Shown: one piece after another, positions 5,247 through 59,250 of the stretch
Layout of the letters: each line of letters opens with the position of its first letter
How positions within the stretch are numbered: position 1 is the first letter of the stretch
Origin: a virus
Length of the DNA stretch: 64,000 nucleotides
Virus record (IMG/VR): IMGVR_UViG_3300029419_000188
Strand: one strand, 5' to 3'
The notes under the pieces: generated by a model
Databases searched by the model: none
Told to the model about the DNA's origin: nothing
What the model saw: the letters and a program-made list of their open reading frames with translations, nothing else
Program-made: the position numbers and the translations under genes

Positions 5247-5556
5247 TTTTTTCTTCCTTTCAAATTTTGATGTTTATAAGTTAAATAATTAACTATAATA
5301 TTTATAGTAACATTGTAGTATAGTATAAATTAAAAAAAAATATTCAAGAAAAATGTATGAATTGGGAAAAGAAGAATAATTAATTGTGTTTAGACATTTT
5401 TAAAAACTAATCAAAAATGCGTTTATGTAATTTGCACAAAATTAAAAAAGATATATGATTTTACAGTGTTTTTTTTAATTTTTGAATAATTTTACATCTT
5501 TCATTTATAATACAAAAAATAAAATATTAAAATTTATAAAAAAAGGAGAGAAAATT

Positions 5557-6138
5557 ATGAATAAAATTTTTTGTATTATGGGTAAATCATCATCTGGAAA
5601 AGATACAATTTATAATCTTATTAAAAATCAATTTGAATTTGAGAATCTTTTGCCTGTGGTAATTTATAGCACTCGTCCAATGAGAGATGGAGAAATTCAA
5701 GATGAAACATATCATTTTATTTCTATGGACAAGATGAATGAACTTGAAAAGAATGGAGAATTAATTGAGAGAAGAAATTATGATACGGTAAATGGTATTT
5801 GGTCTTATGCAACTGGAATTAATTGTTTCAAACATAATAATAATTATCTTATTATTACAACACCAATTGCTTATAAAGAAATGCAGGATAAAATTAATGA
5901 TTTTGAACTTATACCAATCTATATTGAAGTAAATGATTATATTCGACTCACACGTGCATTAAATAGAGAAAAAATGAATGAAAACGAAAATTATGCAGAA
6001 GTGTGTAGAAGATTTTTATCTGATGCAGATGACTTTAGTGAAGAAATTCTTGAAAAATTAAAGATTACAAATAGATTTAATAATGATGAAAATTGTCTAA
6101 AAGAAGTTGAGTCATTTATAAAGCAAAATATAAATTAA
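5557..6138 (+). CDS. guanylate kinase-like nucleoside monophosphate kinase
   Basis: P-loop GKSSSGKDT and VIYSTRPMRDGEI..ETYHFIS match the Gmk pattern (G.SG.GK.T ... TTR.PR.GE..G.DYHF); start moved to the ATG with RBS AAAAAGGAGAGAAAATT. Confidence 0.65.
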   Translation: MNKIFCIMGKSSSGKDTIYNLIKNQFEFENLLPVVIYSTRPMRDGEIQDETYHFISMDKMNELEKNGELIERRNYDTVNGIWSYATGINCFKHNNNYLIITTPIAYKEMQDKINDFELIPIYIEVNDYIRLTRALNREKMNENENYAEVCRRFLSDADDFSEEILEKLKITNRFNNDENCLKEVESFIKQNIN

Positions 6139-15171: not shown

Positions 15172-15455
15172 ACTACTCAAAAAAGTGGTCACAGTCTCCA
15201 CAATGATAGATCTCAACATTTGGTTTATCAAAACTATCGTATTCAAATTCTTCATTTGTGTAATATTTTCTATCATTGACTGCAATGTAATCTACACCGC
15301 TTGTCCTGTCAAAATCCATTCGAAACTTAAAAATCTTCTTACTACCACAATATGGACATTGACATTATCTGTATTGGGCAAGTGTCTTTAAATGTGAAAG
15401 ATAGTGTTCAGTCAGATATTCAATGTCATCAATATCTTCATCAATCTTGTGAATT
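15172..15455 (-). pseudogene. disrupted paralog of the Zn-ribbon gene 61350..61772, with an in-frame TAA and its 5' part separated by an IS insertion
   Basis: minus-strand translation ...LAQYR*CQCPYCGSKKIFKF...EIYHCGDCDHFF aligns with ...KQYRKCKCPRCGSKKIFKF...EIFHCGECDYLFS; the likely N-terminal remainder lies beyond the IS at ~17257-17330. Confidence 0.5.
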
Positions 15456-17256
15456 ACTCATGACTAAAGTCACGAGTGTCTTTCAAGATACATGTTTATA
15501 ACTCATTAAAAATGAGTATAGGATTAAATGCACAATCCAGATATTTTCTTACCTCATATGCCTGATGCAAATTTTTTGGATTTGTCTTACTCTGGCTCGC
15601 ATAGTTATCCCTTGATAACCATGATCGTACTATATACGATATAAGCTTAAACTACCACCATTCCCAGCGGTACTAAATTTTTTATATAATAATTGATAAA
15701 ATCTATTGTTGATATTTCATTTACATCGTTATATATATATAATTAATTTTATAAAGTTTTTTTATTATAACCTAAAATTTTATATTACAAGAATATTATT
15801 AAGAGACAAAATACTAATACCTTCATCAAATAAATTATTTTTTGCATTTGCATCTCGATCATGATGTACTCCACAAATTGGACATGTCCATTCACGATTA
15901 TTTAATTTCAAATTTACATTCTTATAACCACAATGATTACATAACTTACTAGATGCAAAAAATCTATCTACTTGAAGAAAAATGCCACCTTTCTTTTCCA
16001 TTTTATATTTTACAAATGTTAAAAATTGTCCCCAACCAACTGATGCAATTGCTTTCGCTAACTTATGATTTTTTATCATACCTTTAATATTTAAATCTTC
16101 ACAAATAAAAACATCACATTTATTTACAATTTCTTTACTTAATTTATGATGAAAATCTTTTCTTTGATTTTTAATCTTTTGATGTTCTTTTGCTAATTTG
16201 TATTTTGCTTTTTGATAATTATTAGATCCTTTCTTTTTTCTACTAAGTGATTGACTTAATCTTCTTACTCTTTTTTCATGTACTTTAATAAATTTTGGAT
16301 TTTCAACTTTTTCAGTATAATCTTTATTTCCATAAATAGCAAAATCTTTAATTCCCATATCAGATGCAATAATATTTTTTACATGCACAGTCGTAATAGG
16401 AATTGGTTTATCAACAATTGCTTCCATTTGCAATGAAATAGTATAAGTATCTTTATTTCTTTTTATTGTTGCACTTGTAATATTTGTATTCTCTGGTTGA
16501 ATATCCTGTAAGGTTTTTCTTTTTGGTAAAACAAATCTTACTTTTCCAACTTTAGGAATTTTTACATATGGTAATTTATCAATCATTAATAATTCAATGT
16601 TGTTATTTGTATATTTTGTTGTATAGGAGTTTCCACTTTCTTTATATTTATCTACAAATTTAGGAAATCCTGCTTTTTTACCATTTTTAATATTTTCAAA
16701 AAAATGATTATATGCATCATCAACATGTTCAATTGCACTTTCTAATGCAAATTTATCAGATAATTTTAAGAATCCATTTTCTTTTTTTAATTTTGGTAAA
16801 AAATTCTTTTTATAGTCAGATACAAATAGAGTTTCTTTTGAAGTTTCATAAAGATTTTTACGTTCTGATAAATAATTATTTCTTACAAATCTTGCATTAC
16901 CAATTTGTTGATTAATATTGATTGTTTGCTTTTCATTTGGTAATAAAGACAAAATAATACCATAATTAAAAAGCATTTTTCCATATGGTTCAAGAAGTGT
17001 ATTCTTATCTTTTGTAATAGTGAAACTTCTGCCATGAAAAATATATTTATTATTAATGATTTCTAATGTTAGCATATTTTTTATTCCTTTCATATCTGAT
17101 AAATATCATTCTATTACATTTATTGACAAAAGTCAATAAAAAATTCGTTTTTTAGTATTTTTTTATATTTTTAATAATTTCTTTATACATTAAAAATATC
17201 CTACAATAATAGTATTATTGTAGAAAGAAACTTTACTCATGACTAAAGTCACGAGT
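15455..17256 (-). mobile_element. TnpB-only IS200/IS605-family element (IS1341-like) bracketed by a 23-bp direct repeat containing an imperfect hairpin
   Basis: tactcatgactaaagtcacgagt at 15455-15477 and 17234-17256; tnpB inside; GC-richer 3' region 15480-15780 where a right-end guide (omega) RNA would be encoded. Confidence 0.55.
15780..17075 (-). CDS. tnpB: TnpB (IS605 OrfB family RNA-guided nuclease-like transposon protein)
   Basis: GNARFVRNNYL N-terminal motif and a C-terminal zinc finger CNHCGY...CPICG followed by HDRDANAKNN (RuvC-III-like); start moved to the ATG with RBS GAAAGGA. Confidence 0.7.
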   Translation of the reverse strand: MLTLEIINNKYIFHGRSFTITKDKNTLLEPYGKMLFNYGIILSLLPNEKQTININQQIGNARFVRNNYLSERKNLYETSKETLFVSDYKKNFLPKLKKENGFLKLSDKFALESAIEHVDDAYNHFFENIKNGKKAGFPKFVDKYKESGNSYTTKYTNNNIELLMIDKLPYVKIPKVGKVRFVLPKRKTLQDIQPENTNITSATIKRNKDTYTISLQMEAIVDKPIPITTVHVKNIIASDMGIKDFAIYGNKDYTEKVENPKFIKVHEKRVRRLSQSLSRKKKGSNNYQKAKYKLAKEHQKIKNQRKDFHHKLSKEIVNKCDVFICEDLNIKGMIKNHKLAKAIASVGWGQFLTFVKYKMEKKGGIFLQVDRFFASSKLCNHCGYKNVNLKLNNREWTCPICGVHHDRDANAKNNLFDEGISILSLNNILVI

Positions 17257-17632
17257 ATGCAGTTTCTATTTTAATCAAATGCTGAGTTAATTTCCAATGA
17301 TGTATCAATTACAGCTGCAAATAAAACTGTAAAATTTGAAAAGGTAAATACTTCAACTGCAGACAAAGAAAACACAAATACAGTCAATAATACAACAACT
17401 GATAATCAAAATAAAGTAGATAAAACACAAACAAGCGATAATAATCTTGTTGTAATTATTCAATATTCATTAATATTTATTTTCTGTATTGAATTAGTTT
17501 GATATTTCATAAAGAAAAAAAATTAATCTTTTAAGAAGAATGCAAAAAATTGCATTCTTCTTTTATATTTTTTATATTTTTATCTATAATATAAAAAATA
17601 ATATTTTTGAATTTTAAAAGGAGAGAAAAATT

Positions 17633-19219: not shown

Positions 19220-19903
19220 ATGAAAATAGAGATACAAGAAGTATTAGAAACTCTTCAATCAGATATTACTGAAAAAGAAAATCAAATTAATTTAATCAAA
19301 AATATTGATTGGACAAAATCTGTAACAGAAGAAGAATGGCATCAAATTTGTGAAACTTTATTACGAACTTCAGATTCATTATGTGATCTCTTAAAAAATA
19401 CTTTTCCAAATGCAACAGATATTAAACTTGGAATGAATTATGTAAATTTTAATTTATATGGATTTAAATGTTTACTTCCAACATCTATTTATGAAGAAAT
19501 ACTTGTTGATATGAGTTGGAATAAAAATCTAAAAAAACCAACACTTGAAAACACAATGAATCAATTTGAGAGAAATATGCGAGAATATTTCAAGTCAGTA
19601 GATTCTCATGAATCTTGGTTAAAATTATTTGATTTAAGATTTTTACAGTTTAAACATTATAAAAAATGGATTAAATTCATTTTATGGTTTGGGAAATATA
19701 AATGGAAAAATGTTCATCGAGAAAAATGGGAAGAACAATTCAAAAATACAGAAGAAAGAGTTACTGAAAAATTAAATTTGTATAAAAAAGAAAAAAGAGA
19801 AATTGAAGAAAAAAATAAAATACTTCATGAGAAATTGTTACCAGAATTATATCAATTTACAAAAAATGTTTATGATAAAGATTACAAAAAAGAAATTATT
19901 TAA
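19220..19903 (+). CDS. hypothetical protein, paralog family B
   Basis: promoter tctataat at 19174; paralog of 8809..9495. Confidence 0.6.
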   Translation: MKIEIQEVLETLQSDITEKENQINLIKNIDWTKSVTEEEWHQICETLLRTSDSLCDLLKNTFPNATDIKLGMNYVNFNLYGFKCLLPTSIYEEILVDMSWNKNLKKPTLENTMNQFERNMREYFKSVDSHESWLKLFDLRFLQFKHYKKWIKFILWFGKYKWKNVHREKWEEQFKNTEERVTEKLNLYKKEKREIEEKNKILHEKLLPELYQFTKNVYDKDYKKEII

Positions 19904-19919
19904 AAAAAGGAGAGAAAAT

Positions 19920-21161
19920 ATGGGAAAGTTAATTTTTTGTTATGGAGCAATGGGTGCATCTAAAAGTGCAGAATTACTTATGTGGCGGTATAACTATGAA
20001 CAATCTGGATACTCAGTATTATTGATGAAACCTAAGATTGATAATAGAGAAGAATTTTTGTCAAATAAAATGGGCGTGATTTCATCTAGAATTGGATTAA
20101 CTGCAGAATGTTTATTAATTGATAAAAAAATTGAAGAATGGGAAAATGAAATACAATGTCATGATATTATTATGGTTGATGAGTCTCAATTTTTAACAGA
20201 ATTACAAGTAGATGAATTATATCAAATTTCTATGAATAAAACTGTTATTTGTTTTGGTCTTAGGACTGATTTTACACAACACTTTTTCTCTGGTAGTAAA
20301 AGACTTATGGAATTGGCAACAGATATCAGAGAATTAAAGACAGTTTGTACTTGTGGGAAAAAAGCAACTATTAATGCTAGATTAAATGGAGATAAATTAG
20401 TAACAGAAGGTGAACAAATACAAATTGGTGCAAATGAATCATATAAAGCAATGTGTAAAGATTGTTTTGAAAAACTAAAAAAAGAAAGTGAAGAAAATCA
20501 TGAAATAACAAAAGAAGAAATTACTAAAATTATTAAAAATGACAATTTGGATTTACAAATTCTTGATGAAGGTATTGATATATCATTTAAAGAATACGCA
20601 GAAAAACATTCATTGGAAGAGTCAATAAATATATTATGGAATATATTTAAAAACGAAAAATCTGCAATAAAAAATGGATATTCAAAAGAACATTATCAAG
20701 ATTATCTATCATTATTTAAAAAAGAAATGCAAAAAGACATTAATAAAACATATAATGCATTAGAAATATCAAAATATATAATAAATAAATGTTTAGAGGA
20801 TAAAAAACCTATCTCGCATATACAACTTCAGAAAATATTATATTCTATTCAATTAGAATTTTTAGAAATCAATAAAGTTTTGTTTTCTGATAATTTTTAT
20901 GCAATTCAAATTGGCCCAGTAATTTTAAGTGTATATAATTATTTTTGTGGATCTGGAGCACAAAAAATCATGACATCTTTTAAAACAGATATTCAGTGGA
21001 ATGAATTAGATAAAATAATCATTGATCAAATTATAAAGGAAAAAAGAGAATTATTGCCATGGGAATTTAATGAAGAGATTATGTATAAAAATTCTCCATA
21101 TGATATTACATGGCAAAATGGAAAAGGAAATTGGAAAATAATTAAATTGACAAAAGGATAA
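19920..21161 (+). CDS. tdk: thymidine kinase with a C-terminal Panacea (DUF4065)-like domain
   Basis: N-terminus has P-loop GAMGASKSAEL, MVDESQFL and a C-terminal CxCG Zn site typical of type II TK; the final ~200 aa contain ISHIQLQKILYSIQLEF...FYAIQIGPVILSVYNYF, matching the Panacea-domain pattern (LQKLLY...AW.yGPV...vY); start at the ATG after AAAAAGGAGAGAAAAT. Confidence 0.6.
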   Translation: MGKLIFCYGAMGASKSAELLMWRYNYEQSGYSVLLMKPKIDNREEFLSNKMGVISSRIGLTAECLLIDKKIEEWENEIQCHDIIMVDESQFLTELQVDELYQISMNKTVICFGLRTDFTQHFFSGSKRLMELATDIRELKTVCTCGKKATINARLNGDKLVTEGEQIQIGANESYKAMCKDCFEKLKKESEENHEITKEEITKIIKNDNLDLQILDEGIDISFKEYAEKHSLEESINILWNIFKNEKSAIKNGYSKEHYQDYLSLFKKEMQKDINKTYNALEISKYIINKCLEDKKPISHIQLQKILYSIQLEFLEINKVLFSDNFYAIQIGPVILSVYNYFCGSGAQKIMTSFKTDIQWNELDKIIIDQIIKEKRELLPWEFNEEIMYKNSPYDITWQNGKGNWKIIKLTKG

Positions 21162-29267: not shown

Positions 29268-30720
29268 TAAATACATACATATACCATTATTTGTAATGTT
29301 ATTTACATTCATTGCATATATGGTTTCTGATATTTATTTTGATAATGATGGATATTGGATTATAGCATCTGGAAAGTACATTGTAAATCATGGAATTCCA
29401 ACTAAAAATCCATTTACATTCATAAAAGATTTAAATATTATTATTCAACAATGGCCATGGGCAATTTTTTGTTATAAAGTATATTCACAATTTGGTAATT
29501 TAGGACTTTATATTTGTACATTATTAATTTTTCTTGCAGATGTTATAATGTTTTCTAAATTAGCTAAGTTGAAAAATGCAAATGTAAGCATCAGTACATT
29601 ATTTACACTCTTAATATTTTGTTTCTCATATATATTTATTTCAATACGTCCAACAATGTTAACGGTATTTTTATTAATATCAGAAATCTATGTATTAGAG
29701 TATTATAAACAGACAGAAAAAAAAGGTGTATTGGGATTTTTAATACTGATTTCTTTTTTTGAAATTAATTTACACTCAGCAATTTGGTTTTTCCATTTTG
29801 TTTTTATGCTACCATATATTGTTCCTCCAATTAAAAATCCATTTGTGAAATTTAAAGAAGATAATATGAAAAGAAAACCTTTATTTTTCACAATGATTCC
29901 AATGTTTCTTGTTGGATTTTTAAATCCTTATGGAATAAAAGGAATGTTATATATTGTATATTCTTTTGGTAATCAACTAAAGAATGCAGGAATTAGTGAA
30001 TTAGAATGCTGGACATTAAAGAGTTTTTATGGATTAATAATGATTATTACGATATTAATTGTTACATACATATTAAAGAAGAAAAAAATTGATTCAGCAA
30101 CCTTTTATTTATTTTGTGGAACAACAATTATGGGATTTATGTATAAACGCAATTTAATTTACTTTATCTTTGGTTTAATTATTCTATTTATAGAATTAAT
30201 TAAAGATATAGATTTTGCTAAAATAAATACGTGGTTTGAAAAACAAATAAAATATACTTGTTGTTATGTTTGGTTGGTTATTGTTATATTTTGTATATTA
30301 TTTGGAAAATCAATGATACATACTGTTTTAATAAATCCAGAGGAAATGAATGTACATCCTGTAAAATGTGTACAATATTTAGACAACAAAAATGTTGACA
30401 AACAAACAACTAAAATTTATACTGAATTTAATTCTGGTGGATATTTTGAATTTAAAGACTATCATTGTTTTATTGATGCAAGACCTGAATTATATTTTAA
30501 AAAATTAAATAAAAAACAAGAAGTGTTTAAAGATTATGACACATTACAAATCACTTCAAATATTTCAAAACTTGAAAAAATATTACAAAAATATCAATTT
30601 GATTATTTATGTGTATCTGTTAATACAAATTTAGATACTTATTTAAAATTAAAAAATAATTATAAGATTGTGCAAAAAGATAAAAAAACAGGATTCAATC
30701 TTTATCAAAAAATTAATTAA
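29248..30720 (+). CDS. polytopic membrane protein, possible GT-C-fold (ArnT/PMT-like) glycosyltransferase
   Basis: ~11 predicted TM helices in the first 340 aa; first loop DNDGYWIIASGKYIVNHGIP resembles the DE..Y....ASG.WivP loop of ArnT/PMT; soluble C-terminal ~150 aa; terminator at 30727-30775. Confidence 0.35.
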   Translation: MKKILNNKYIHIPLFVMLFTFIAYMVSDIYFDNDGYWIIASGKYIVNHGIPTKNPFTFIKDLNIIIQQWPWAIFCYKVYSQFGNLGLYICTLLIFLADVIMFSKLAKLKNANVSISTLFTLLIFCFSYIFISIRPTMLTVFLLISEIYVLEYYKQTEKKGVLGFLILISFFEINLHSAIWFFHFVFMLPYIVPPIKNPFVKFKEDNMKRKPLFFTMIPMFLVGFLNPYGIKGMLYIVYSFGNQLKNAGISELECWTLKSFYGLIMIITILIVTYILKKKKIDSATFYLFCGTTIMGFMYKRNLIYFIFGLIILFIELIKDIDFAKINTWFEKQIKYTCCYVWLVIVIFCILFGKSMIHTVLINPEEMNVHPVKCVQYLDNKNVDKQTTKIYTEFNSGGYFEFKDYHCFIDARPELYFKKLNKKQEVFKDYDTLQITSNISKLEKILQKYQFDYLCVSVNTNLDTYLKLKNNYKIVQKDKKTGFNLYQKIN

Positions 30721-30845
30721 TATAAATAACTTCTAGATTTTCAATTTCTAGAAGTTATTTTTTTTATTTTTGTTATTTTTTTTTTAATATAATCTATAAT
30801 TTATAAATGATATTTAATAAAATATTTTTTAGGAGGAATTTTTAT

Positions 30846-31436
30846 ATGAAATTATTAGAAATGTTTAAAAATGATTTAAAACAAAGTGGAGAAGAAACAA
30901 TTGACACAATTATGCATGCATTAAAAATTGTTGAGAATTTTGTGCAAAATTCTTCAAATGAAGATATTATTGAATTTGGTTCTTATTTTTTAGATCATTA
31001 TGATGATTTAACAAAAGAAAGACGGTTATCAGATTATAATGGAATGGAACCAATTTCTATTGGTACATTTAAATTTATAGAATCAAATAGAATGGATTTA
31101 GAATTCTTTGATATATATCAAAGGGATTTTACAAAAAATGAACAATTTGAATTAATTTCATTCAAAAAAGAATTAAATGAGTTATTTATCAGATATAAAG
31201 AACTTATTATATCAAAAGAAATTAAATTAGGAGAATCATTTTTGTCAAATTATTTTATTGTAGCTCCAATAAAAGATTTTAATCTTATGGATAATGCATT
31301 AGTTGATGTATTCGTTAAAAACGCAATTTTATCAGATACAGCAGAAGTTACCATTCTTCTTCCATATACAAATCATAAATTAAATTATTCATTTGTGAAT
31401 GGACATTGGATTAGTGAAAATGGAAGAAAATGTTAA
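30846..31436 (+). CDS. hypothetical protein
   Basis: promoter tctataat at 30793; RBS AGGAGGAATTTTTAT. Confidence 0.45.
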   Translation: MKLLEMFKNDLKQSGEETIDTIMHALKIVENFVQNSSNEDIIEFGSYFLDHYDDLTKERRLSDYNGMEPISIGTFKFIESNRMDLEFFDIYQRDFTKNEQFELISFKKELNELFIRYKELIISKEIKLGESFLSNYFIVAPIKDFNLMDNALVDVFVKNAILSDTAEVTILLPYTNHKLNYSFVNGHWISENGRKC

Positions 31437-31449
31437 GAGATGCTATATT

Positions 31450-31665
31450 TTTAATATTGACAACCTCCCACGGATAAATCCGTGGGATTCCTTAGATTCG
31501 ACAATCGCACTAGCATTCCTAAGAACACTAGATATAAATTGTCTCTTTCAGGATTTCGTGCATTTCGTTCAAGGCAAAGCCTTTTACTAGATATCTTGTT
31601 TTCACAAGAACAACGCGGTTGATGTCTGAACCGTTTTTTATTTATTTATATGTTAATTAATTAAA
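31450..31665 (-). ncRNA. putative TnpB guide (omega/right-end) RNA scaffold region
   Basis: GC-rich structured non-coding DNA immediately 3' of tnpB with several hairpins, where IS605-family TnpB omega RNAs are encoded. Confidence 0.4.
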
Positions 31666-33235
31666 ATCCAAAACAATTTTTATAACTAATTTTTTTTGCT
31701 TTCATATCTGCAATCAATTCATTTTGCAACTTTATAAAATTATCAAATTCTGCAATACACTTATCTCTATCAACATGTTTAAAACTTATATCTGCATTAT
31801 GGTATAAAAATGCACTATATAAATCTCGTTGTACTTTTTGTCCATCAATTATTTTTTCTCTTTGGTTTAATGGTATTTTTACATAAGTATCTGTATCATG
31901 ATTATATTGACTACCTTTATATGTGATAGGATTCACATAAACAATTTTTCCCTCCATTTGTTTTACTTTTTCTTCTAACAATTTTAAAAATCTAGCTGGT
32001 GATCTATCATTAATTGTTTTTCCAAAACGTTTACATCTATTTTTATTATTATTTGATTTTATTTGTTTATCATTATTTTCAAATGTTGTATTTGTTTCTT
32101 TTTTATTATTGACATTTTGTTCATTTGAACAATCTTTTGTTTCTACAAGTTTCTTTTTTTCCTTCTTTTTTAATGCATTAAAATTCATATCTTCAATAAT
32201 AAAAAATAATGAGTCTTTTACTATTTCATTTACTTGAGTTCTGTGTGAATGTGTTGTATATTCAGATTTTTGTCGATACAAATTTTTTAATTTATTTCTT
32301 AACATACAATATCTTTTTGAATATACCCATTTATCTTTACTTCTCTTTTTTATTGTTCCATCTTCATTATATTTCTTTGGATTTGTTATACGCTTTGAAT
32401 ATTCCATCTTTTTTTGAATTTTTGCAATTTTTCTATTATAATTTTTACATTTTGGTGCTAATTCATTTAAAACAGTTTTTGTCTCTGAATATCCAGCAAC
32501 AGTTGAAATACTTGGATCCATTCCCATTGTGGAACCTTTTGATGTTATATTTCGTTTTGGTGGTTCTCCTTTGACATAAATTAGCGCATAATAGTGCCAA
32601 CCATTATTAAACATTCTACGTTTAATTTCACAATAAGAAATTTTATTTTCTAAAGATTCAAACAAATACACATCTTCAAGATTATATTTGGATATTTTGC
32701 ATTTTAAGTTAAGACCTAAATATTCAATTGTATAAGTATTTTTGTCAAATTTAATTCCATTTTTTAGACTTTTACTTGGAAGTGTATTAAAATCACGGAC
32801 TTTTTTATAATGAATTGTTTTTCCAGTTGAAAACAAAACCTTTTGAACACCATTCCAAACATTATCTACCTCTTTTTGAACTTGTGAGGATGCCAACATT
32901 TTAGAAAATTGACTACCACAAACTTTCATATAAGACTCTAATCCAGTTTTTGTGAGTCCGATTTCATACTTTATTTGATTCATGATATCTGATAATTCTT
33001 TTTTCCGTTTTTGTTTTTTTTCTTTATCAGATTTTGTATTTGGTTTTGATTCATTTAATTTAATATATTCTGTCAAAGCATTTTGATATTTTTTATTTGT
33101 TTTTAATGAGTTGATAAGTTTTTTTGTATGAGATACACATACATTATGAACATGTTCTAATGCAAAAAATCGATTTGCTAACTCTCTATGATCATATTTT
33201 GTTGTATCAATTAATAATTCTACAGTATACATCAT
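31661..33235 (-). CDS. tnpB: TnpB (IS605 OrfB family)
   Basis: 524-aa protein in the canonical position downstream of tnpA within paired IS ends. Confidence 0.65.
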   Translation of the reverse strand: MMYTVELLIDTTKYDHRELANRFFALEHVHNVCVSHTKKLINSLKTNKKYQNALTEYIKLNESKPNTKSDKEKKQKRKKELSDIMNQIKYEIGLTKTGLESYMKVCGSQFSKMLASSQVQKEVDNVWNGVQKVLFSTGKTIHYKKVRDFNTLPSKSLKNGIKFDKNTYTIEYLGLNLKCKISKYNLEDVYLFESLENKISYCEIKRRMFNNGWHYYALIYVKGEPPKRNITSKGSTMGMDPSISTVAGYSETKTVLNELAPKCKNYNRKIAKIQKKMEYSKRITNPKKYNEDGTIKKRSKDKWVYSKRYCMLRNKLKNLYRQKSEYTTHSHRTQVNEIVKDSLFFIIEDMNFNALKKKEKKKLVETKDCSNEQNVNNKKETNTTFENNDKQIKSNNNKNRCKRFGKTINDRSPARFLKLLEEKVKQMEGKIVYVNPITYKGSQYNHDTDTYVKIPLNQREKIIDGQKVQRDLYSAFLYHNADISFKHVDRDKCIAEFDNFIKLQNELIADMKAKKISYKNCFGF

Positions 33236-33247
33236 TTCATCTCTTTC

Positions 33248-33649
33248 TTAAGGTCTTGTTTTTTGTGTATTAATATAATTTTTAATTGTTAAACTACTAA
33301 CATTTTCAGCAGTTGAAACAAAATAACTTCTAGTCCATAAACTTGGCATTTTACTAAGTTGTGGAAATGTATCTCTTAATATTTTAGATGATGAACCTTT
33401 AATCCATTTCATAACATCTTGTGGTGATTGAGTTGGCAAACATTTCACAAATAAATGGACATGATCTTTATGACATTCCATAGTTAATATTTGAATGTTT
33501 CGTCTTTTGTATTCATTTATTGTTAATTGTTTAAACATATCTTCTACACCTTTAATTAAAAATATTTTTCTTCTATATCTTGGACAAAATACGAAATGAT
33601 AATGAATCATTGAAACTGTTGTTTTGGTTGAAATATAATCATTTTGCAT
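33248..33649 (-). CDS. tnpA: IS200-type Y1 (HUH) transposase TnpA
   Basis: HYHFVFCPRYRR, HxH motif HKDHVHLFV and catalytic-Tyr region RSYFVSTAENVS. Confidence 0.75.
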   Translation of the reverse strand: MQNDYISTKTTVSMIHYHFVFCPRYRRKIFLIKGVEDMFKQLTINEYKRRNIQILTMECHKDHVHLFVKCLPTQSPQDVMKWIKGSSSKILRDTFPQLSKMPSLWTRSYFVSTAENVSSLTIKNYINTQKTRP

Positions 33650-33946
33650 AATATTTATTTTAAAATAGATGTCTTTGTTTGATACATCTATTTGTTCCTT
33701 TCATTTGTTAATAATATTAACATGTTTATTGACATTTATCAACGAGTTTTTCGAAAAATATTTCATTTGCAACAATTCATCCCACGATTAAAATTGTGGG
33801 CATTCTTGTTGAATCATAGTAAAGAATTTAACCTATGCAAAATTTGTATAGGTTAAAGATTTATTTATAAAAATTGATTATATTTTCAATTAAATCATTT
33901 ATAATGAAAAAAGAATATTAAAAAATATTTAAAAGGAGACAAATTT

Positions 33947-34522
33947 ATGTATAAAAATATGAGTAAATTATTAAAAGATGGAAAAGTTGGTGATTTTAAA
34001 TTAGAGCATTTTGAAATCAAAAATAATGATTTATATGCCTTATTACATGGTATACAACCTGGAACTTATGTTAAATTAACACAAAATAATGAAGTTGTAA
34101 TGTCTAATACACAAATGGAACAACATACAAATATTGATTTTGTTGAAAATGCTCATGGAAATGTTTTAATTGGTGGATTAGGAATTGGAATGATTATTCT
34201 TGCAATTCAAGAAAAGGAAACTGTAAAATCAATTACAGTTATTGAAAAAAATAAAGAGGTAATTGAATTGATTCAACAACAATTGCCATTAAATGAAAAA
34301 GTAAAAGTTATAAATGATGATGTATTCAATTATAAACCAGCTCAAAAATTCAATACTATTTATATGGATATTTGGAATTATATAAATGAAGATGTTTATG
34401 AAAATGAAATGAAACCATTAATGAAATATTATAGAAAATATTTAATTTCAAAGACTGAAGATAAAAATAGATATATTGATTGTTGGTGTAAAAAACAAGC
34501 AAAAAATGGTGAAAGAATATGA
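33947..34522 (+). CDS. putative class I SAM-dependent methyltransferase (spermidine-synthase-like fold)
   Basis: Gly-rich motif I VLIGGLGIGMI, acidic INDDVF, and IYMDIW resembling the proximal motifs of PABS-like methyltransferases. Confidence 0.35.
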   Translation: MYKNMSKLLKDGKVGDFKLEHFEIKNNDLYALLHGIQPGTYVKLTQNNEVVMSNTQMEQHTNIDFVENAHGNVLIGGLGIGMIILAIQEKETVKSITVIEKNKEVIELIQQQLPLNEKVKVINDDVFNYKPAQKFNTIYMDIWNYINEDVYENEMKPLMKYYRKYLISKTEDKNRYIDCWCKKQAKNGERI

Positions 34523-34842
34523 TTAAAATTGGTGGTATTTATAAAAGTAAAGAAGATAATGATGTATATTTTTTAATTCTTGATGTTGATAAAAGATATC
34601 TTTATGATTATATCTTAATTGAACCATTTGAAACAATTTCAAATTTGGATATTAATAATCAATTAGATGCTGTTGAAAACTTCACAGATTTTTTTGACAT
34701 AAATAATTTTTCATTTCTGACTAAGAAATCTTTAATGAAAATTATTGATGGATATTTAGGTGAATTAACAGAAGAAAATTTAACATTTATAAAAGATACT
34801 TTTAAAACAACAGAAATATATGAAAAAATTTATAACAGATAA
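34519..34842 (+). CDS. hypothetical protein, KIGGIY paralog family
   Basis: MIKIGGIYKSK... and IIDGYLGELTEENL shared with 42353; start overlaps the upstream stop. Confidence 0.5.
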   Translation: MIKIGGIYKSKEDNDVYFLILDVDKRYLYDYILIEPFETISNLDINNQLDAVENFTDFFDINNFSFLTKKSLMKIIDGYLGELTEENLTFIKDTFKTTEIYEKIYNR

Positions 34843-34958
34843 ACAATTATATCATGAAATTCATTAATATTTTTTAAATTTTTTTATATTTTTCAGATAC
34901 TCATCTATAATAAATTATCAAGTAAAATTATAAAAAATTTAAAAAGGAGGATTTTTGG

Positions 34959-35306
34959 ATGTTAAATAGGAGTGATGTACATTATATTGAAATGATGTAT
35001 GGAAAGAAAAGCACAGAATATTCAATTGCAGAACAATTAAACATTATTAATGAAAGATTAAATGAAACAAATACTGTTTCTTTAATTAAAGATTGCAAGA
35101 TGGAAACAATTTCTTATATTGCAACAATTGTTGATAAAAATGATGAAAGTTATTTTATATTAAAAAAACTGTATAAAAATAAAAATTCTGGAAAAGTAAA
35201 AGAAAAAGTAACGGAAGAAAAAAATGCTAAAAAATATCAAGTTTTAGATCATTTCATAAACTTTACAGCTTATGATTTGTTACTAAAAGGTTACAAATTA
35301 GTGTAA
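34959..35306 (+). CDS. hypothetical protein
   Basis: promoter tctataat at 34894; RBS AAAAAGGAGGATTTTTGG. Confidence 0.45.
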   Translation: MLNRSDVHYIEMMYGKKSTEYSIAEQLNIINERLNETNTVSLIKDCKMETISYIATIVDKNDESYFILKKLYKNKNSGKVKEKVTEEKNAKKYQVLDHFINFTAYDLLLKGYKLV

Positions 35307-35554: not shown

Positions 35555-36796
35555 TTATTTTTTTTTAATTTTTTTCCAATATTCTTCATACATTTTTTCC
35601 ATTTGACTTGTTCCAAAATGATAATATTGTTTATTCTTTAATTTTTCTGGCATATATTCTTGTTCTACATAATGATTTGGATAATCATGTGGATATAAAT
35701 ATCCATTTCCATGATTTATATTTTTTGCATTAGAATAATGACTATCTTTCAAATGATGAGGAACTTCTTCTACATTTACATCTTTCATAGCTTCTTCAAT
35801 CGCTAAATAGCATTTGTTACTCTTAGGTTGAAGTGTTAAATATACAACAGCTTCTGATAGTGGAAGTCTACATTCTGGATATCCTAGTTGTATTGCAGTA
35901 TCTACTAATGATTTAACAACTACAATGGCATTGAAATTTGCTGATCCAACATCTTCACATGCAGAACAAAGTAATCTACGTATAATTACTGGTAGGGCAT
36001 TATTTCCACCTTGCAAAAGTAAAGATAAATAATGTAGTGCTGCATCTGTTGCTGATCCACGTAAAGACTTCATAAATGCACTAGCTAGATCATAATATCT
36101 ATCATTTTGTGAATCAAGACTTAAATTAATAGCTAGTTCATTTAAATCTTCAGTATGTAAAAATACATCATTAGAAAATGGATTTTTATTTTTAAAAAAA
36201 CATGTTTCAAATTTGTTCAAACAATTTCTTAAATCTCCATTTGTTCTCATAATTAATTCTTCAATGAAATTATCATCCATTTTAATTTTACAATTGAAGT
36301 CTTTCTCAATTTTCTCTACAATTAAATTTAATCTTTTACTAATATCTTCTTGATTTAATTCTTTAAATTCAAAAATAATACAACGTGAAAGAATTGCTTT
36401 GTTAATTGTGAAATATGGATTTTCTGCAGTGCTACCAATGAGTATTACATTTCCATTTTCTACAGATTCTAATAGTACTTGCTGAGTTCGTTTTGAGATT
36501 AAATGTAATTCATCAATATATACAATTTTTTCTTCATCATTTTCATTTATTATATCTTTTAAATCTTTTACAGATAAATCAACAGCATTTAATTGAATAA
36601 AATGTTTATTCAATTCCTTTGCTAATATTCTTGCTAATGTTGTTTTTCCTGTACCTGGTGGTCCATATAAAATAATAGATTGAATATACTGATTTGTAAT
36701 AAATCCTTGAATGATACTATTTTTGTGTAAAAGATGCTTCTGTCCAACCATTTCTTCAATTTTTTTTGGTCTATATTTTGTTGCAAATGGTTCCAT
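35555..36796 (-). CDS. rarA: RarA/MgsA-family AAA+ ATPase (replication-associated recombination protein A homolog)
   Basis: N-terminal KYRPKKIEEMVGQKHLL, Walker A GPPGTGKTTLA, Walker B IVYIDELH, and the MgsA C-terminal helical domain (DRYYDLASAFMKSLRGS.TDAALHYLSLLL.GG ... LAIEEA); start at MEPF with RBS GAAAGGGGA. Confidence 0.75.
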   Translation of the reverse strand: MEPFATKYRPKKIEEMVGQKHLLHKNSIIQGFITNQYIQSIILYGPPGTGKTTLARILAKELNKHFIQLNAVDLSVKDLKDIINENDEEKIVYIDELHLISKRTQQVLLESVENGNVILIGSTAENPYFTINKAILSRCIIFEFKELNQEDISKRLNLIVEKIEKDFNCKIKMDDNFIEELIMRTNGDLRNCLNKFETCFFKNKNPFSNDVFLHTEDLNELAINLSLDSQNDRYYDLASAFMKSLRGSATDAALHYLSLLLQGGNNALPVIIRRLLCSACEDVGSANFNAIVVVKSLVDTAIQLGYPECRLPLSEAVVYLTLQPKSNKCYLAIEEAMKDVNVEEVPHHLKDSHYSNAKNINHGNGYLYPHDYPNHYVEQEYMPEKLKNKQYYHFGTSQMEKMYEEYWKKIKKK

Positions 36797-36926
36797 AAAA
36801 TTTCCCCTTTCTATTATCAATTATTATCTAAGTATAATATGTTCAACTTGAAAAATATTTCAATTTATGATAAAATCATAAATGAAATAAAGACAATTGT
36901 CAATAAAAAATAGAAAGGATTAAAAA

Positions 36927-58131: not shown

Positions 58132-59250
58132 CTACTTCACTTCATACAACATTTCTGTAATTTTTTCTCCAGCTTCTCGATCCATTTCTTTTAATGTATG
58201 AGCGTAGATGTTAAGAGTAGTTGTAATATTACTGTGTCCAAGTCTGTCAGATACAATCTTAGAATTCACATTCTTCTGAATTAACAAAGTTGCATGTGCA
58301 TGTCTTAAATCATGAAAACGAATTTGTTTTAATTCTTTTTTTATTAAAAATCTTCTAAAACGTTGTGAAATACAATCTTCTCCAATTGGATTTCCTTTTT
58401 TATCAAAGAAAATTAATTCATCATTTATTCTTTCACCTTTTAATCTTTTTTGAATTTGTTTCTTACGTTCTTTCTTTAACATTTCAAAAATTTCTTGTGG
58501 TCCTGATAAATCACGGATAGAACTTTCTGTCTTTGGTTCTTTTAATATTACTTCACCATTTACTCTTGCAGTAATTTGTCTAACATGTATCACTTTATTT
58601 TCAAAATCAATATCTTGCCATCGAAGACCAAGTATTTCACTAATTCTTAAACCAAATCCAACTGCTAGATGTATTGGTAATTCAATATTTTTATCTTTCA
58701 CTTTTTCAAATAATATTTTCAAATCTTCTTCTGTATAAATTTCATTCTTAAATTTATTATTCTTTGGTATCATAATCCTATCAACAATTTTATCATCAAT
58801 TATTTGAAGTTTATATGCATAAGTAAGTGCAATACTTAATATATTTAAATGAATTTTTACTGTTTGTGGCTTTAATTCTAATATTTTTAAATCTACATAT
58901 TTTTGTAAATGAATGGGCTGCAACTCAGATAGCTTCAATTTACCAAGTATTGGATAAATATGTTTGATTAATATTTTTATATATTGTTCATATGTTGTAA
59001 TACTTATATTTCGTTTATATGAATTCATAAATTCATTCATATAATTTTCTAATGTTTGTTCATTTGGTAATTGCAATTTATTTATATCTTTTAAATATGA
59101 TAATTCTCGTTTTCGTTTTTCTGCATCTTTCTTATTCGTATAAGTTCCCATATTCTTCTGACTTCTTTTCTTAAACTCATCTTCAGATGTAAGATATACA
59201 TAATATTTACTGTTTCGTTCTCGTATAAATATACTCACTATTCTTTCCAT
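58132..59250 (-). CDS. tyrosine recombinase / phage-type integrase
   Basis: C-terminal catalytic region HDLRHAHATLLIQ...GHSNITTTLNIYAH (R..H..R..Y signature); N-terminal SAM-like core-binding region; RBS GAAAGGAGTATATT. Confidence 0.8.
   Translation of the reverse strand: MERIVSIFIRERNSKYYVYLTSEDEFKKRSQKNMGTYTNKKDAEKRKRELSYLKDINKLQLPNEQTLENYMNEFMNSYKRNISITTYEQYIKILIKHIYPILGKLKLSELQPIHLQKYVDLKILELKPQTVKIHLNILSIALTYAYKLQIIDDKIVDRIMIPKNNKFKNEIYTEEDLKILFEKVKDKNIELPIHLAVGFGLRISEILGLRWQDIDFENKVIHVRQITARVNGEVILKEPKTESSIRDLSGPQEIFEMLKKERKKQIQKRLKGERINDELIFFDKKGNPIGEDCISQRFRRFLIKKELKQIRFHDLRHAHATLLIQKNVNSKIVSDRLGHSNITTTLNIYAHTLKEMDREAGEKITEMLYEVK

Follow-up and report, generated by a model that had tools for sequence, protein, structure and literature searches.

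We analyzed a 64,000-nt stretch of DNA from the virus record IMGVR_UViG_3300029419_000188 (the window, by which we mean this whole stretch), and found that its minus strand carries, at 31457-33818, what is very probably an intact insertion sequence (IS) of the IS200/IS605 family. In particular, we give a probability of about 85% to the reading that this is an element of the IS605 group with an IS608-like transposase and IS608-like ends, a divergent TnpB, and the scaffold of an omega RNA. Its two open reading frames (ORFs), tnpA and a tnpB-like gene, are both intact and their catalytic motifs are undisrupted, in agreement with an earlier note on this DNA, which had called the element intact from its sequence alone.

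Layout and Ends of the Element

From 5' to 3' on the minus strand, the element consists of a left end (LE), tnpA, a gap of 12 nt, the tnpB-like ORF, an A-rich spacer, and a GC-rich block that forms the right end (RE; table 1). On this strand the LE junction reads ...TTCTTTAC|TATGATTCAACAAGAATG-CCCAC..., and the RE terminus reads GAAT-CCCACGGATTTATCCGTGGG-AGGTTGTCAA. Subterminal palindromes are present without terminal inverted repeats, and the target was not duplicated, the left flank ending in ...TTAC and the right flank starting with TATT.... Across the 64 kb, the pattern CCCAC-N10-GTGGG has two matches, which are the two hairpins, compared with 0.05 expected. The earlier note had described these hairpins as near-identical; both exist as quoted there, but they are only similar, sharing 71% identity over 28 nt in direct orientation, that is, as a direct repeat. 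The RE hairpin contains nine perfect pairs and folds as DNA with z = -4.1.

Table 1. Positions of the parts of the IS605-group element and of other features in the window.
Feature	Position	Strand	Remarks
TTAC target and left cleavage site; predicted target-adjacent motif (TAM)	33819..33822	-	Outside the element; abuts the LE on its 5' side
LE	33650..33818	-	18-nt spacer, imperfect hairpin, and untranslated leader up to tnpA
LE guide tetranucleotide AATG	33804..33801	-	Closes the 18-nt spacer
LE hairpin CCCACAATTTTAATCGTGGG	33800..33781	-	Imperfect; plus strand reads CCCACGATTAAAATTGTGGG at 33781-33800
tnpA	33248..33649	-	133 aa; Y1 HUH transposase
tnpB-like gene	31661..33235	-	524 aa
Predicted omega-RNA scaffold, coinciding with the RE	31457..31634	-	P1, P2, P3/P4, P5
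P1, 5' hairpin	31633..31616	-	
Pseudoknot 5' strand GACAUC	31621..31626	-	In the P1 loop; partner 31464..31459
Pseudoknot 3' strand GUUGUC	31459..31464	-	GAUGUC in the 96.5%-identical relative L001; overlaps the TCAA cleavage site
RE guide tetranucleotide GAAT	31490..31487	-	5' of the RE hairpin
RE subterminal hairpin	31467..31486	-	Plus strand reads CCCACGGATAAATCCGTGGG
TCAA right cleavage site	31457..31460	-	Final 4 nt of the element; ends 10 nt past the hairpin foot
Predicted 16-nt guide portion of the omega RNA, UAUUAAAAAUAUAGCA	31441..31456	-	Would be copied from flanking phage DNA
Tyrosine integrase	58132-59250	-	
Thymidine kinase fused to a domain of unknown function	19803-21161	+	
Guanylate kinase	5482-6138	+	
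MgsA/RarA-type AAA+ ATPase	35555-36820	-	
Second, unrelated IS200/IS605-family element	15450-17260	-	Without tnpA (IS1341-like)

The RE boundary at 31457 is defined by a 96.5%-identical copy on a contig of the European Nucleotide Archive (L001), to which homology ends right at this position after ...GTCAA, with different flanks beyond. This copy covers tnpB and the downstream block, and a second copy of the window's own LE was not among the sequences found; judging from the position of TTAC and from the relatives, the LE probably starts at 33818, beside TTAC. The relatives' copies (90-98% identical to one another; Lachnospiraceae, Oribacterium, and other genomes) have the common boundaries TTAC| and TCAA|, and share the layout TTAC|, 20-21 nt, AAAG, hairpin ... 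GAAT, hairpin, and 10 nt ending in TCAA|. All of their resolved LE junctions end in TTAC, and their RE terminus is TCAA in every case except the four most distant matches, which have TCAG, after which unrelated flanks follow. The LE guide of the window is AATG, compared with AAAG in the relatives; under the IS608 pairing scheme AATG presumably still specifies TTAC, which is present at the window junction.

The element is flanked by the stop codon of a 209-aa ORF (30807-31436, plus strand) on one side and, on the other, by a terminator-like hairpin (33827-33857, plus strand) with 14 pairs and a T-rich tail. The insertion was apparently intergenic, separating a gene from its terminator.

The product of tnpA matched the Pfam family Y1_Tnp (PF01797; 4.2e-34, 117.7 bits, cut-off 23) and the NCBIfam family IS200 (NF033573; 5.9e-37, 126.7 bits, cut-off 55). 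When it was aligned with the structure of the ISHp608 TnpA (2a6m; E = 5e-22), H63-V-H65 stood opposite the HUH motif and Y125-x3-Q129 opposite YxxxQ. By these alignments, the protein is unambiguously a Y1 HUH transposase, as the earlier note had proposed, and Y125 is its catalytic tyrosine.

A Zinc-Finger-Free TnpB-Like Protein

The second gene had been taken in the earlier note for tnpB. This holds for the fold and the catalytic site of its product, which are those of TnpB and Cas12f with a conserved RuvC D-E-D triad, but the assignment is not a routine one. The protein scored 16 bits against Pfam OrfB_IS605 (PF01385), under the gathering score of 30.5, and 29.4 bits against NCBIfam guided_TnpB (NF040570), under the cut-off of 100. 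In addition, a search of the PDB with a profile of 15 homologues matched no TnpB, Cas12, or Fanzor chain, so that a comparison of folds was needed. We therefore compared an AlphaFold2 model, built from a 65-sequence alignment (mean predicted local distance difference test score, pLDDT, 87.9), with the PDB by Foldseek, and all 38 matches at E <= 0.001 were TnpB, Cas12, or Fanzor structures. The best was the ISFba1 TnpB (8iaz; E = 1.4e-12, template modeling [TM] score 0.70); the others included the ISDra2 TnpB (8h1j and 8exa; TM 0.64 and 0.69), several Cas12f structures, and Fanzor2 (9b0l).

Alignment by hhalign with a canonical TnpB encoded elsewhere in the window placed D240 (GMDPS) at the RuvC-I aspartate, E348 (IIEDMNF) at the RuvC-II glutamate, and D471 (QRDLY) opposite DRD, the RuvC-III motif thus reading QRDLY in place of DRDxN. 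D240, E348, H446, and R470 do not vary among 65 homologues, and the conservation of D471 is at least 90%; in the model, D240, E348, and D471 lie at strand ends or at the start of a helix, as in the RNase H fold. The CxxC...CxxC zinc finger of the canonical protein aligned with SQYNH...IDGQ, and no cysteine pair is present at this position in the clade, which therefore lacks the C4 zinc finger of typical TnpB proteins. Compared with the 96.5%-identical copy, the ratio of nonsynonymous to synonymous substitution rates (dN/dS) is 0.17, which indicates that the tnpB-like gene is under purifying selection. Together, the alignments and the model identify the product as a TnpB-superfamily RuvC nuclease with an intact D-E-D triad and a zinc-free TNB region.

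The protein has about 100 extra residues. Between RuvC-II and the RFGK helix lies a K/N-rich, low-complexity insert (residues 363-401, at about 32035-32150 of the window), for which pLDDT values below 50 predict disorder. The relatives have a basic segment, KRSKK...KYKRKKRFGK, that is shorter and less AT-biased.

Homologues of about 500 aa are numerous. More than 266 were found, and a profile search returned 3,305 clusters at 50% identity with E <= 1e-3, 1,036 of them with E <= 1e-30. Most homologues have no recorded Pfam match, and for two the source gives the name "hypothetical protein". A subgroup from gut Lachnospiraceae and Erysipelotrichaceae, with a CFGF C-terminus, includes the window protein.

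A Conserved RNA Structure at the Right End

In 100-nt segments across 31400-31650, the GC content is 35-38%, compared with 11-26% in the adjoining phage DNA and a background of about 20% in the window. The 178-nt block at 31457-31634 has 41% GC and folds at -57.4 kcal/mol (z = -5.1), a value that none of 200 shuffled sequences equaled; the GC-rich and hairpin-rich character that the earlier note had ascribed to the ~200 bp 3' of tnpB was thus confirmed. Downstream of the tnpB stop codon, 31 of 33 extracted homologous loci have a block of 148-222 nt that is non-coding, starts with GGYYCAGACRUMRRCC, and ends with GAAU-hairpin-AG(G/U)A(U/C)GUCAA; the motif search did not find the block in the other two (L024 and L044).

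The scaffold is composed of P1, a variable domain (P2), the nested stems P3/P4, and the RE hairpin (P5). A first RNAalifold run on the raw MAFFT alignment, long outliers included, recovered only two terminal hairpins; the later analysis used a trimmed set, pseudoknot-aware pair counting, and realignment with a covariance model. In an alignment of 15 sequences (five nested helices and the pseudoknot), 92.7% of the cells were paired, compared with 28-44% when the partners were slid, and 19 pairs showed double changes; none of 500 shuffles reached the observed values. With 39 sequences the paired fraction was 92.8% (31-44% in the controls), and the number of pairs with double changes was 27. The covariance model covered the nested helices only, leaving out the pseudoknot, and P2 was excluded because it gave no consistent alignment.

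A covariance-model search for an omega RNA had been suggested in the earlier note. Against Rfam, neither 30500-35000 searched permissively (E <= 1) nor the whole window searched at the gathering score gave a relevant match, but the purpose-built model had a single match in the window (119.8 bits, E = 1.2e-21), on the minus strand at 31457-31634. Across 68 sources its other matches lay only directly 3' of tnpB homologues, about 17 loci outside the seed among them.

The pseudoknot, which joins 31626..31621 to 31464..31459 (-8..-3 from the boundary), is independent evidence because it lies outside the covariance model. Its positions are 96.6-98.9% paired across the homologues and they covary: one is C-G in 16 sequences and A-U in 13, and another is A-U, G-C, or G-U. 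Two loop-proximal pairs of P5 covary as well. The G.U pairs outnumber the A.C pairs by 93 to 28, and therefore the tnpB-sense strand is the folded one. These comparisons support an omega-RNA-type element at the GC-rich right end, with a conserved and covarying structure and a guide-adjacent pseudoknot, in line with the guide RNA that the earlier note had expected here.

A sister element (described below), with a TnpB only 43-44% identical to that of the window element, shares the terminal 42 nt of the RE at 97.6% identity. We infer that these ~40 nt are nearly identical because they are constrained twice, as DNA (the TnpA signal) and as RNA (a stem and one pseudoknot strand); the RE hairpin would serve as a TnpA binding site when single-stranded DNA and as the last omega-RNA stem when transcribed. 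Directly 3' of the RE, the sequence is unrelated between copies, and the guide portion at 31441..31456 is predicted from the ISDra2 and ISGst paradigm (PMC10097598; 10.1101/2023.03.14.532601).

Mobility and Alternative Readings

Relatives of the element occur in multiple copies within genomes, with different flanks. A search with the shared RE segment recovered 26 human-gut metagenome loci (L141-L166) of the sister element, with at least 14 different right flanks, and every resolved left junction was TTAC. This element is 43-44% identical to the window element in TnpB and 64% in TnpA, and it occurs in two forms: one has tnpA, its LE hairpin lying about 2154 nt upstream of the RE motif, and in the other, which lacks tnpA, this distance is 1825 nt. 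Judged from these junctions and flanks, the family is clearly mobile. Some contigs of the sister element share a left flank but have different right flanks (L148/L155/L159/L160/L164 and L153/L165), a pattern that might reflect either chimeric assembly through the repeat or genuine rearrangements between copies.

The earlier note had also suggested that the window element was recently active. This was not sustained: the element is present in a single copy in the 64 kb, no empty site was found, and the only other copy found is L001, at 96.5% identity and in a different flank; what we observed is the intactness of the element, the low dN/dS, and the mobility of its close relatives. In L001, the sequence upstream of tnpB (1-100) is unlike the 3' end of tnpA in the window, and a different short ORF ending in ...KKQNIRKEMK is found there; this copy may have a different upstream partner or may consist of tnpB only.

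Several results weigh against the reading given at the outset. Besides the family scores, the PDB profile search, the missing zinc finger, and the Rfam search reported above, they comprise the LE hairpin, which has one A.C mismatch and a weak DNA fold (z = -1.5); the pseudoknot of the window, which has one U.U mismatch where L001 has U-A; and a promoter scan, which gave 25 sites compared with 22.7 expected and was thus not above chance. In addition, no further copies were found in IMG/VR by the exact LE or RE hairpin, and no empty site was found either by the exact joined-flank pattern in viral contigs or by a gapped pattern in metagenome contigs.

The two mismatches, the single copy, and the empty-site searches would suit a fixed, immobile relic in a phage lineage, with its genes still intact or its DNA ends recently disabled; so would the LE guide AATG where the family has AAAG, and the identical TnpB protein on three long contigs, in places reported as similar, i.e., at the same locus. 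We nevertheless consider a relic unlikely, since both proteins keep all of their invariant residues, the tnpB-like gene is under purifying selection, the TTAC that AATG presumably still predicts sits at the junction, and the 96.5% copy has a different flank. The hairpins of IS608 are imperfect too (PMC3201880). Moreover, related phages have no insertion beside the homologous neighboring gene: at 48 loci reached through this methyltransferase-like gene, both the IS and the window's upstream genes are absent. These phages give no precise empty site, because their upstream region is non-homologous too.

It is improbable that domestication or a change of the nuclease has turned the TnpB-like protein from a DNA-cutting homing nuclease into, for example, a TldR-type RNA-guided repressor or an enzyme with a changed substrate. 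Such a change would fit the lost zinc finger, the disordered basic insert, the extra residues, and the QRDLY motif, and the IS608 HpyTnpB was inactive in one interference assay (10.1101/2023.03.14.532601); however, zinc-finger loss is already on record for several large, presumably active TnpB branches (PMC10691335). The D-E-D triad is kept across the 65 sequences, and the gene is found inside transposon ends, beside tnpA or as tnpB-only mobile copies, at many insertion sites.

A right end acting as DNA only, in which the GC-rich block would be a TnpA-binding RE plus a transcription terminator of tnpB and would hold no guide-RNA scaffold, is highly improbable given that conservation and covariation extend over 160-200 nt and five further helices; we know of no TnpA contact with so long an RE region. 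The RE hairpin, GAAT, and TCAA are TnpA DNA signals by analogy with IS608 (PMC3201880), the last 42 nt are conserved despite the distance between the TnpB proteins, a consensus scan flags P1 as terminator-like, and Rfam is without a match, but a pseudoknot that links the 5' hairpin loop over a long range to the final nucleotides ahead of the boundary is the mark of TnpB/Cas12 guide RNAs (PMC10097598), G.U pairs are in excess over A.C pairs, which suits a tnpB-sense transcript, and the block is kept in copies without tnpA.

Proposed Mechanism

For the preferred reading of an intact IS605-group element, we propose a peel-and-paste mechanism drawn from work on IS608, ISDra2, and ISGst (PMC3201880, PMC10097598, 10.1101/2023.03.14.532601). 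TnpA would bind both subterminal hairpins on the single-stranded top strand and would cut 3' of both the flanking TTAC and the terminal TCAA, with the 4-nt DNA guides AATG (LE) and GAAT (RE) presenting the two sites. The top strand would be excised as a circle and reinserted 3' of another TTAC in single-stranded DNA, without target duplication, and the excision would leave the donor joint TTAC|TATTAAAAAT. A tnpA-tnpB or read-through transcript, if expressed, would be processed into an omega RNA consisting of the scaffold (31634..31457) and a guide of about 16 nt from the flank (31456..~31441). TnpB with this omega RNA would then recognize TTAC as its TAM and cut the donor joint, and recombination would restore the copy (homing). 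In this reading, the window copy may itself still be mobile.

Comparison with Known Systems

In IS608 (ISHp608, Helicobacter pylori), the left hairpin foot is 19 nt downstream of TTAC, TCAA follows 10 nt after the foot of the right hairpin, and 4-nt guides stand 5' of the hairpins, with AAAG at the LE (PMC3201880). The window element resembles IS608 in the order of tnpA and tnpB on the top strand, the homologous TnpA, the hairpins in direct orientation, and the lack of a target duplication, as well as in the TTAC outside the LE (18 nt from the hairpin, compared with 19 nt in IS608), the GAAT 5' of the RE hairpin, and the terminal TCAA. It differs from IS608 in its LE guide, AATG instead of AAAG, and in its TnpB, which belongs to the zinc-finger-less clade of about 500 aa, whereas IS608 is assigned a typical zinc-finger TnpB of 300-450 aa (PMC10691335).

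With the ISDra2 TnpB and its omega RNA (reRNA), the window system shares the predicted fold, the RuvC D-E-D triad, and a guide RNA that would be made from the right end. In the ISDra2 omega RNA, the pseudoknot strand next to the guide takes up -6..-2, with -5..-3 paired to -103..-105 beside stem 1, and a UUUA loop at -20..-17 caps the last stem (PMC10097598); the window has the same order of guide, pseudoknot, and stem, with the pseudoknot at -8..-3 and the UUUA loop of the RE hairpin at about -21..-18. In contrast, the two proteins are 11-12% identical, with no match at the sequence level, and differ in length (524 aa compared with 408 aa), and the TNB region of the window protein has no CCCC zinc finger. 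Furthermore, the window scaffold lies wholly downstream of the stop codon while that of ISDra2 overlaps the ORF, and the predicted TAM is TTAC rather than TTGAT.

GP155 of Geobacillus virus E3, a gene of Clostridioides phage phiCD211, and OrfB of Clostridium phage c-st are phage-borne members of the same clade, with 24-30% identity over 98-100% of the length. In the two of these that were checked, E3 GP155 and the phiCD211 gene, SQYNH and QRDLYSAFL are present and the zinc finger is missing. The upstream partner is an IS200-type tnpA in E3 and c-st and a short coding sequence named "Transposase" in phiCD211. These are distant members, and such members were deposited as "ORFB IS605-like transposase" or "Transposase"; the omega RNA is unannotated in the three phage records.

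Two named groups were considered and rejected. TldRs are non-mobile and have lost catalytic residues, and the window protein was not placed among them because its triad is kept and its gene lies between IS ends next to tnpA. The TnpB clade RIIIr-4 is zinc-finger-less, is enriched in viruses, has the RuvC-III aspartate changed to histidine, and is linked to RHH/MazE-like genes (Altae-Tran et al. 2023; PMC10691335). The window protein, like RIIIr-4, has no C4 zinc finger and is found in a virus, but by the description of that clade it is set apart from it, since it retains D471 in QRDLY and has a Y1 TnpA as its partner gene.

We tentatively suggest, with rather less confidence than an even chance, that the ~500-aa zinc-finger-free clade might represent a biochemically uncharacterized lineage of RNA-guided nucleases, with a metal-free TNB region, a fully intergenic omega RNA of 160-200 nt that is missing from Rfam, a TTAC TAM, a TnpA hairpin and cleavage site that double as the last stem and a pseudoknot strand, and a spread by phages of gut Firmicutes. 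As a transposon, the window element is a textbook case, one more member of the IS605 group with the end grammar of IS608. Its TnpB represents a sizeable branch that standard annotation has missed and in which the catalytic site is conserved without the zinc finger, and for this branch we provide a covariation-backed omega-RNA structure with a working covariance model. The double constraint on the last ~40 nt, as a TnpA signal and as a TnpB RNA stem and pseudoknot, is a further point of interest. If the nuclease were active, an enzyme with a TTAC TAM from a very AT-rich phage could be of interest for genome-editing screens.

Genomic Context and a Second Element

The window is part of a 73-kb metagenome contig of the Joint Genome Institute, with about 20% GC. 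Most of its ORFs lie on one strand and are without a family match, and no tRNA genes were found in the window. Among the genes that were recognized are those for nucleotide metabolism and the integrase listed in table 1, together with a dCMP deaminase gene; no structural phage genes (capsid, terminase) were found among the 20 window ORFs scanned. Homologues of the neighboring methyltransferase-like gene (59-70% identity) occur on 48 viral contigs of IMG/VR, which are as long as 129 kb. It is thus reasonable to regard the surroundings as phage-like, and on this point the earlier note was right; the DNA may belong to a large temperate phage or to an integrative element of another kind.

The second IS200/IS605-family element in the window encodes the canonical TnpB used for the alignment above, a protein of 437 aa (15780-17093) with matches to Pfam OrfB_IS605 (7e-25) and to the Cas12f1-like TNB zinc ribbon (8e-20), and with a helix-turn-helix domain. 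Identical 22-nt hairpins, ACTCGTGACTTTAGTCATGAGT, lie near its two ends at 17256..17235 and 15477..15456. A stretch with 30-36% GC at 15450-15680 is probably the omega RNA of this element.

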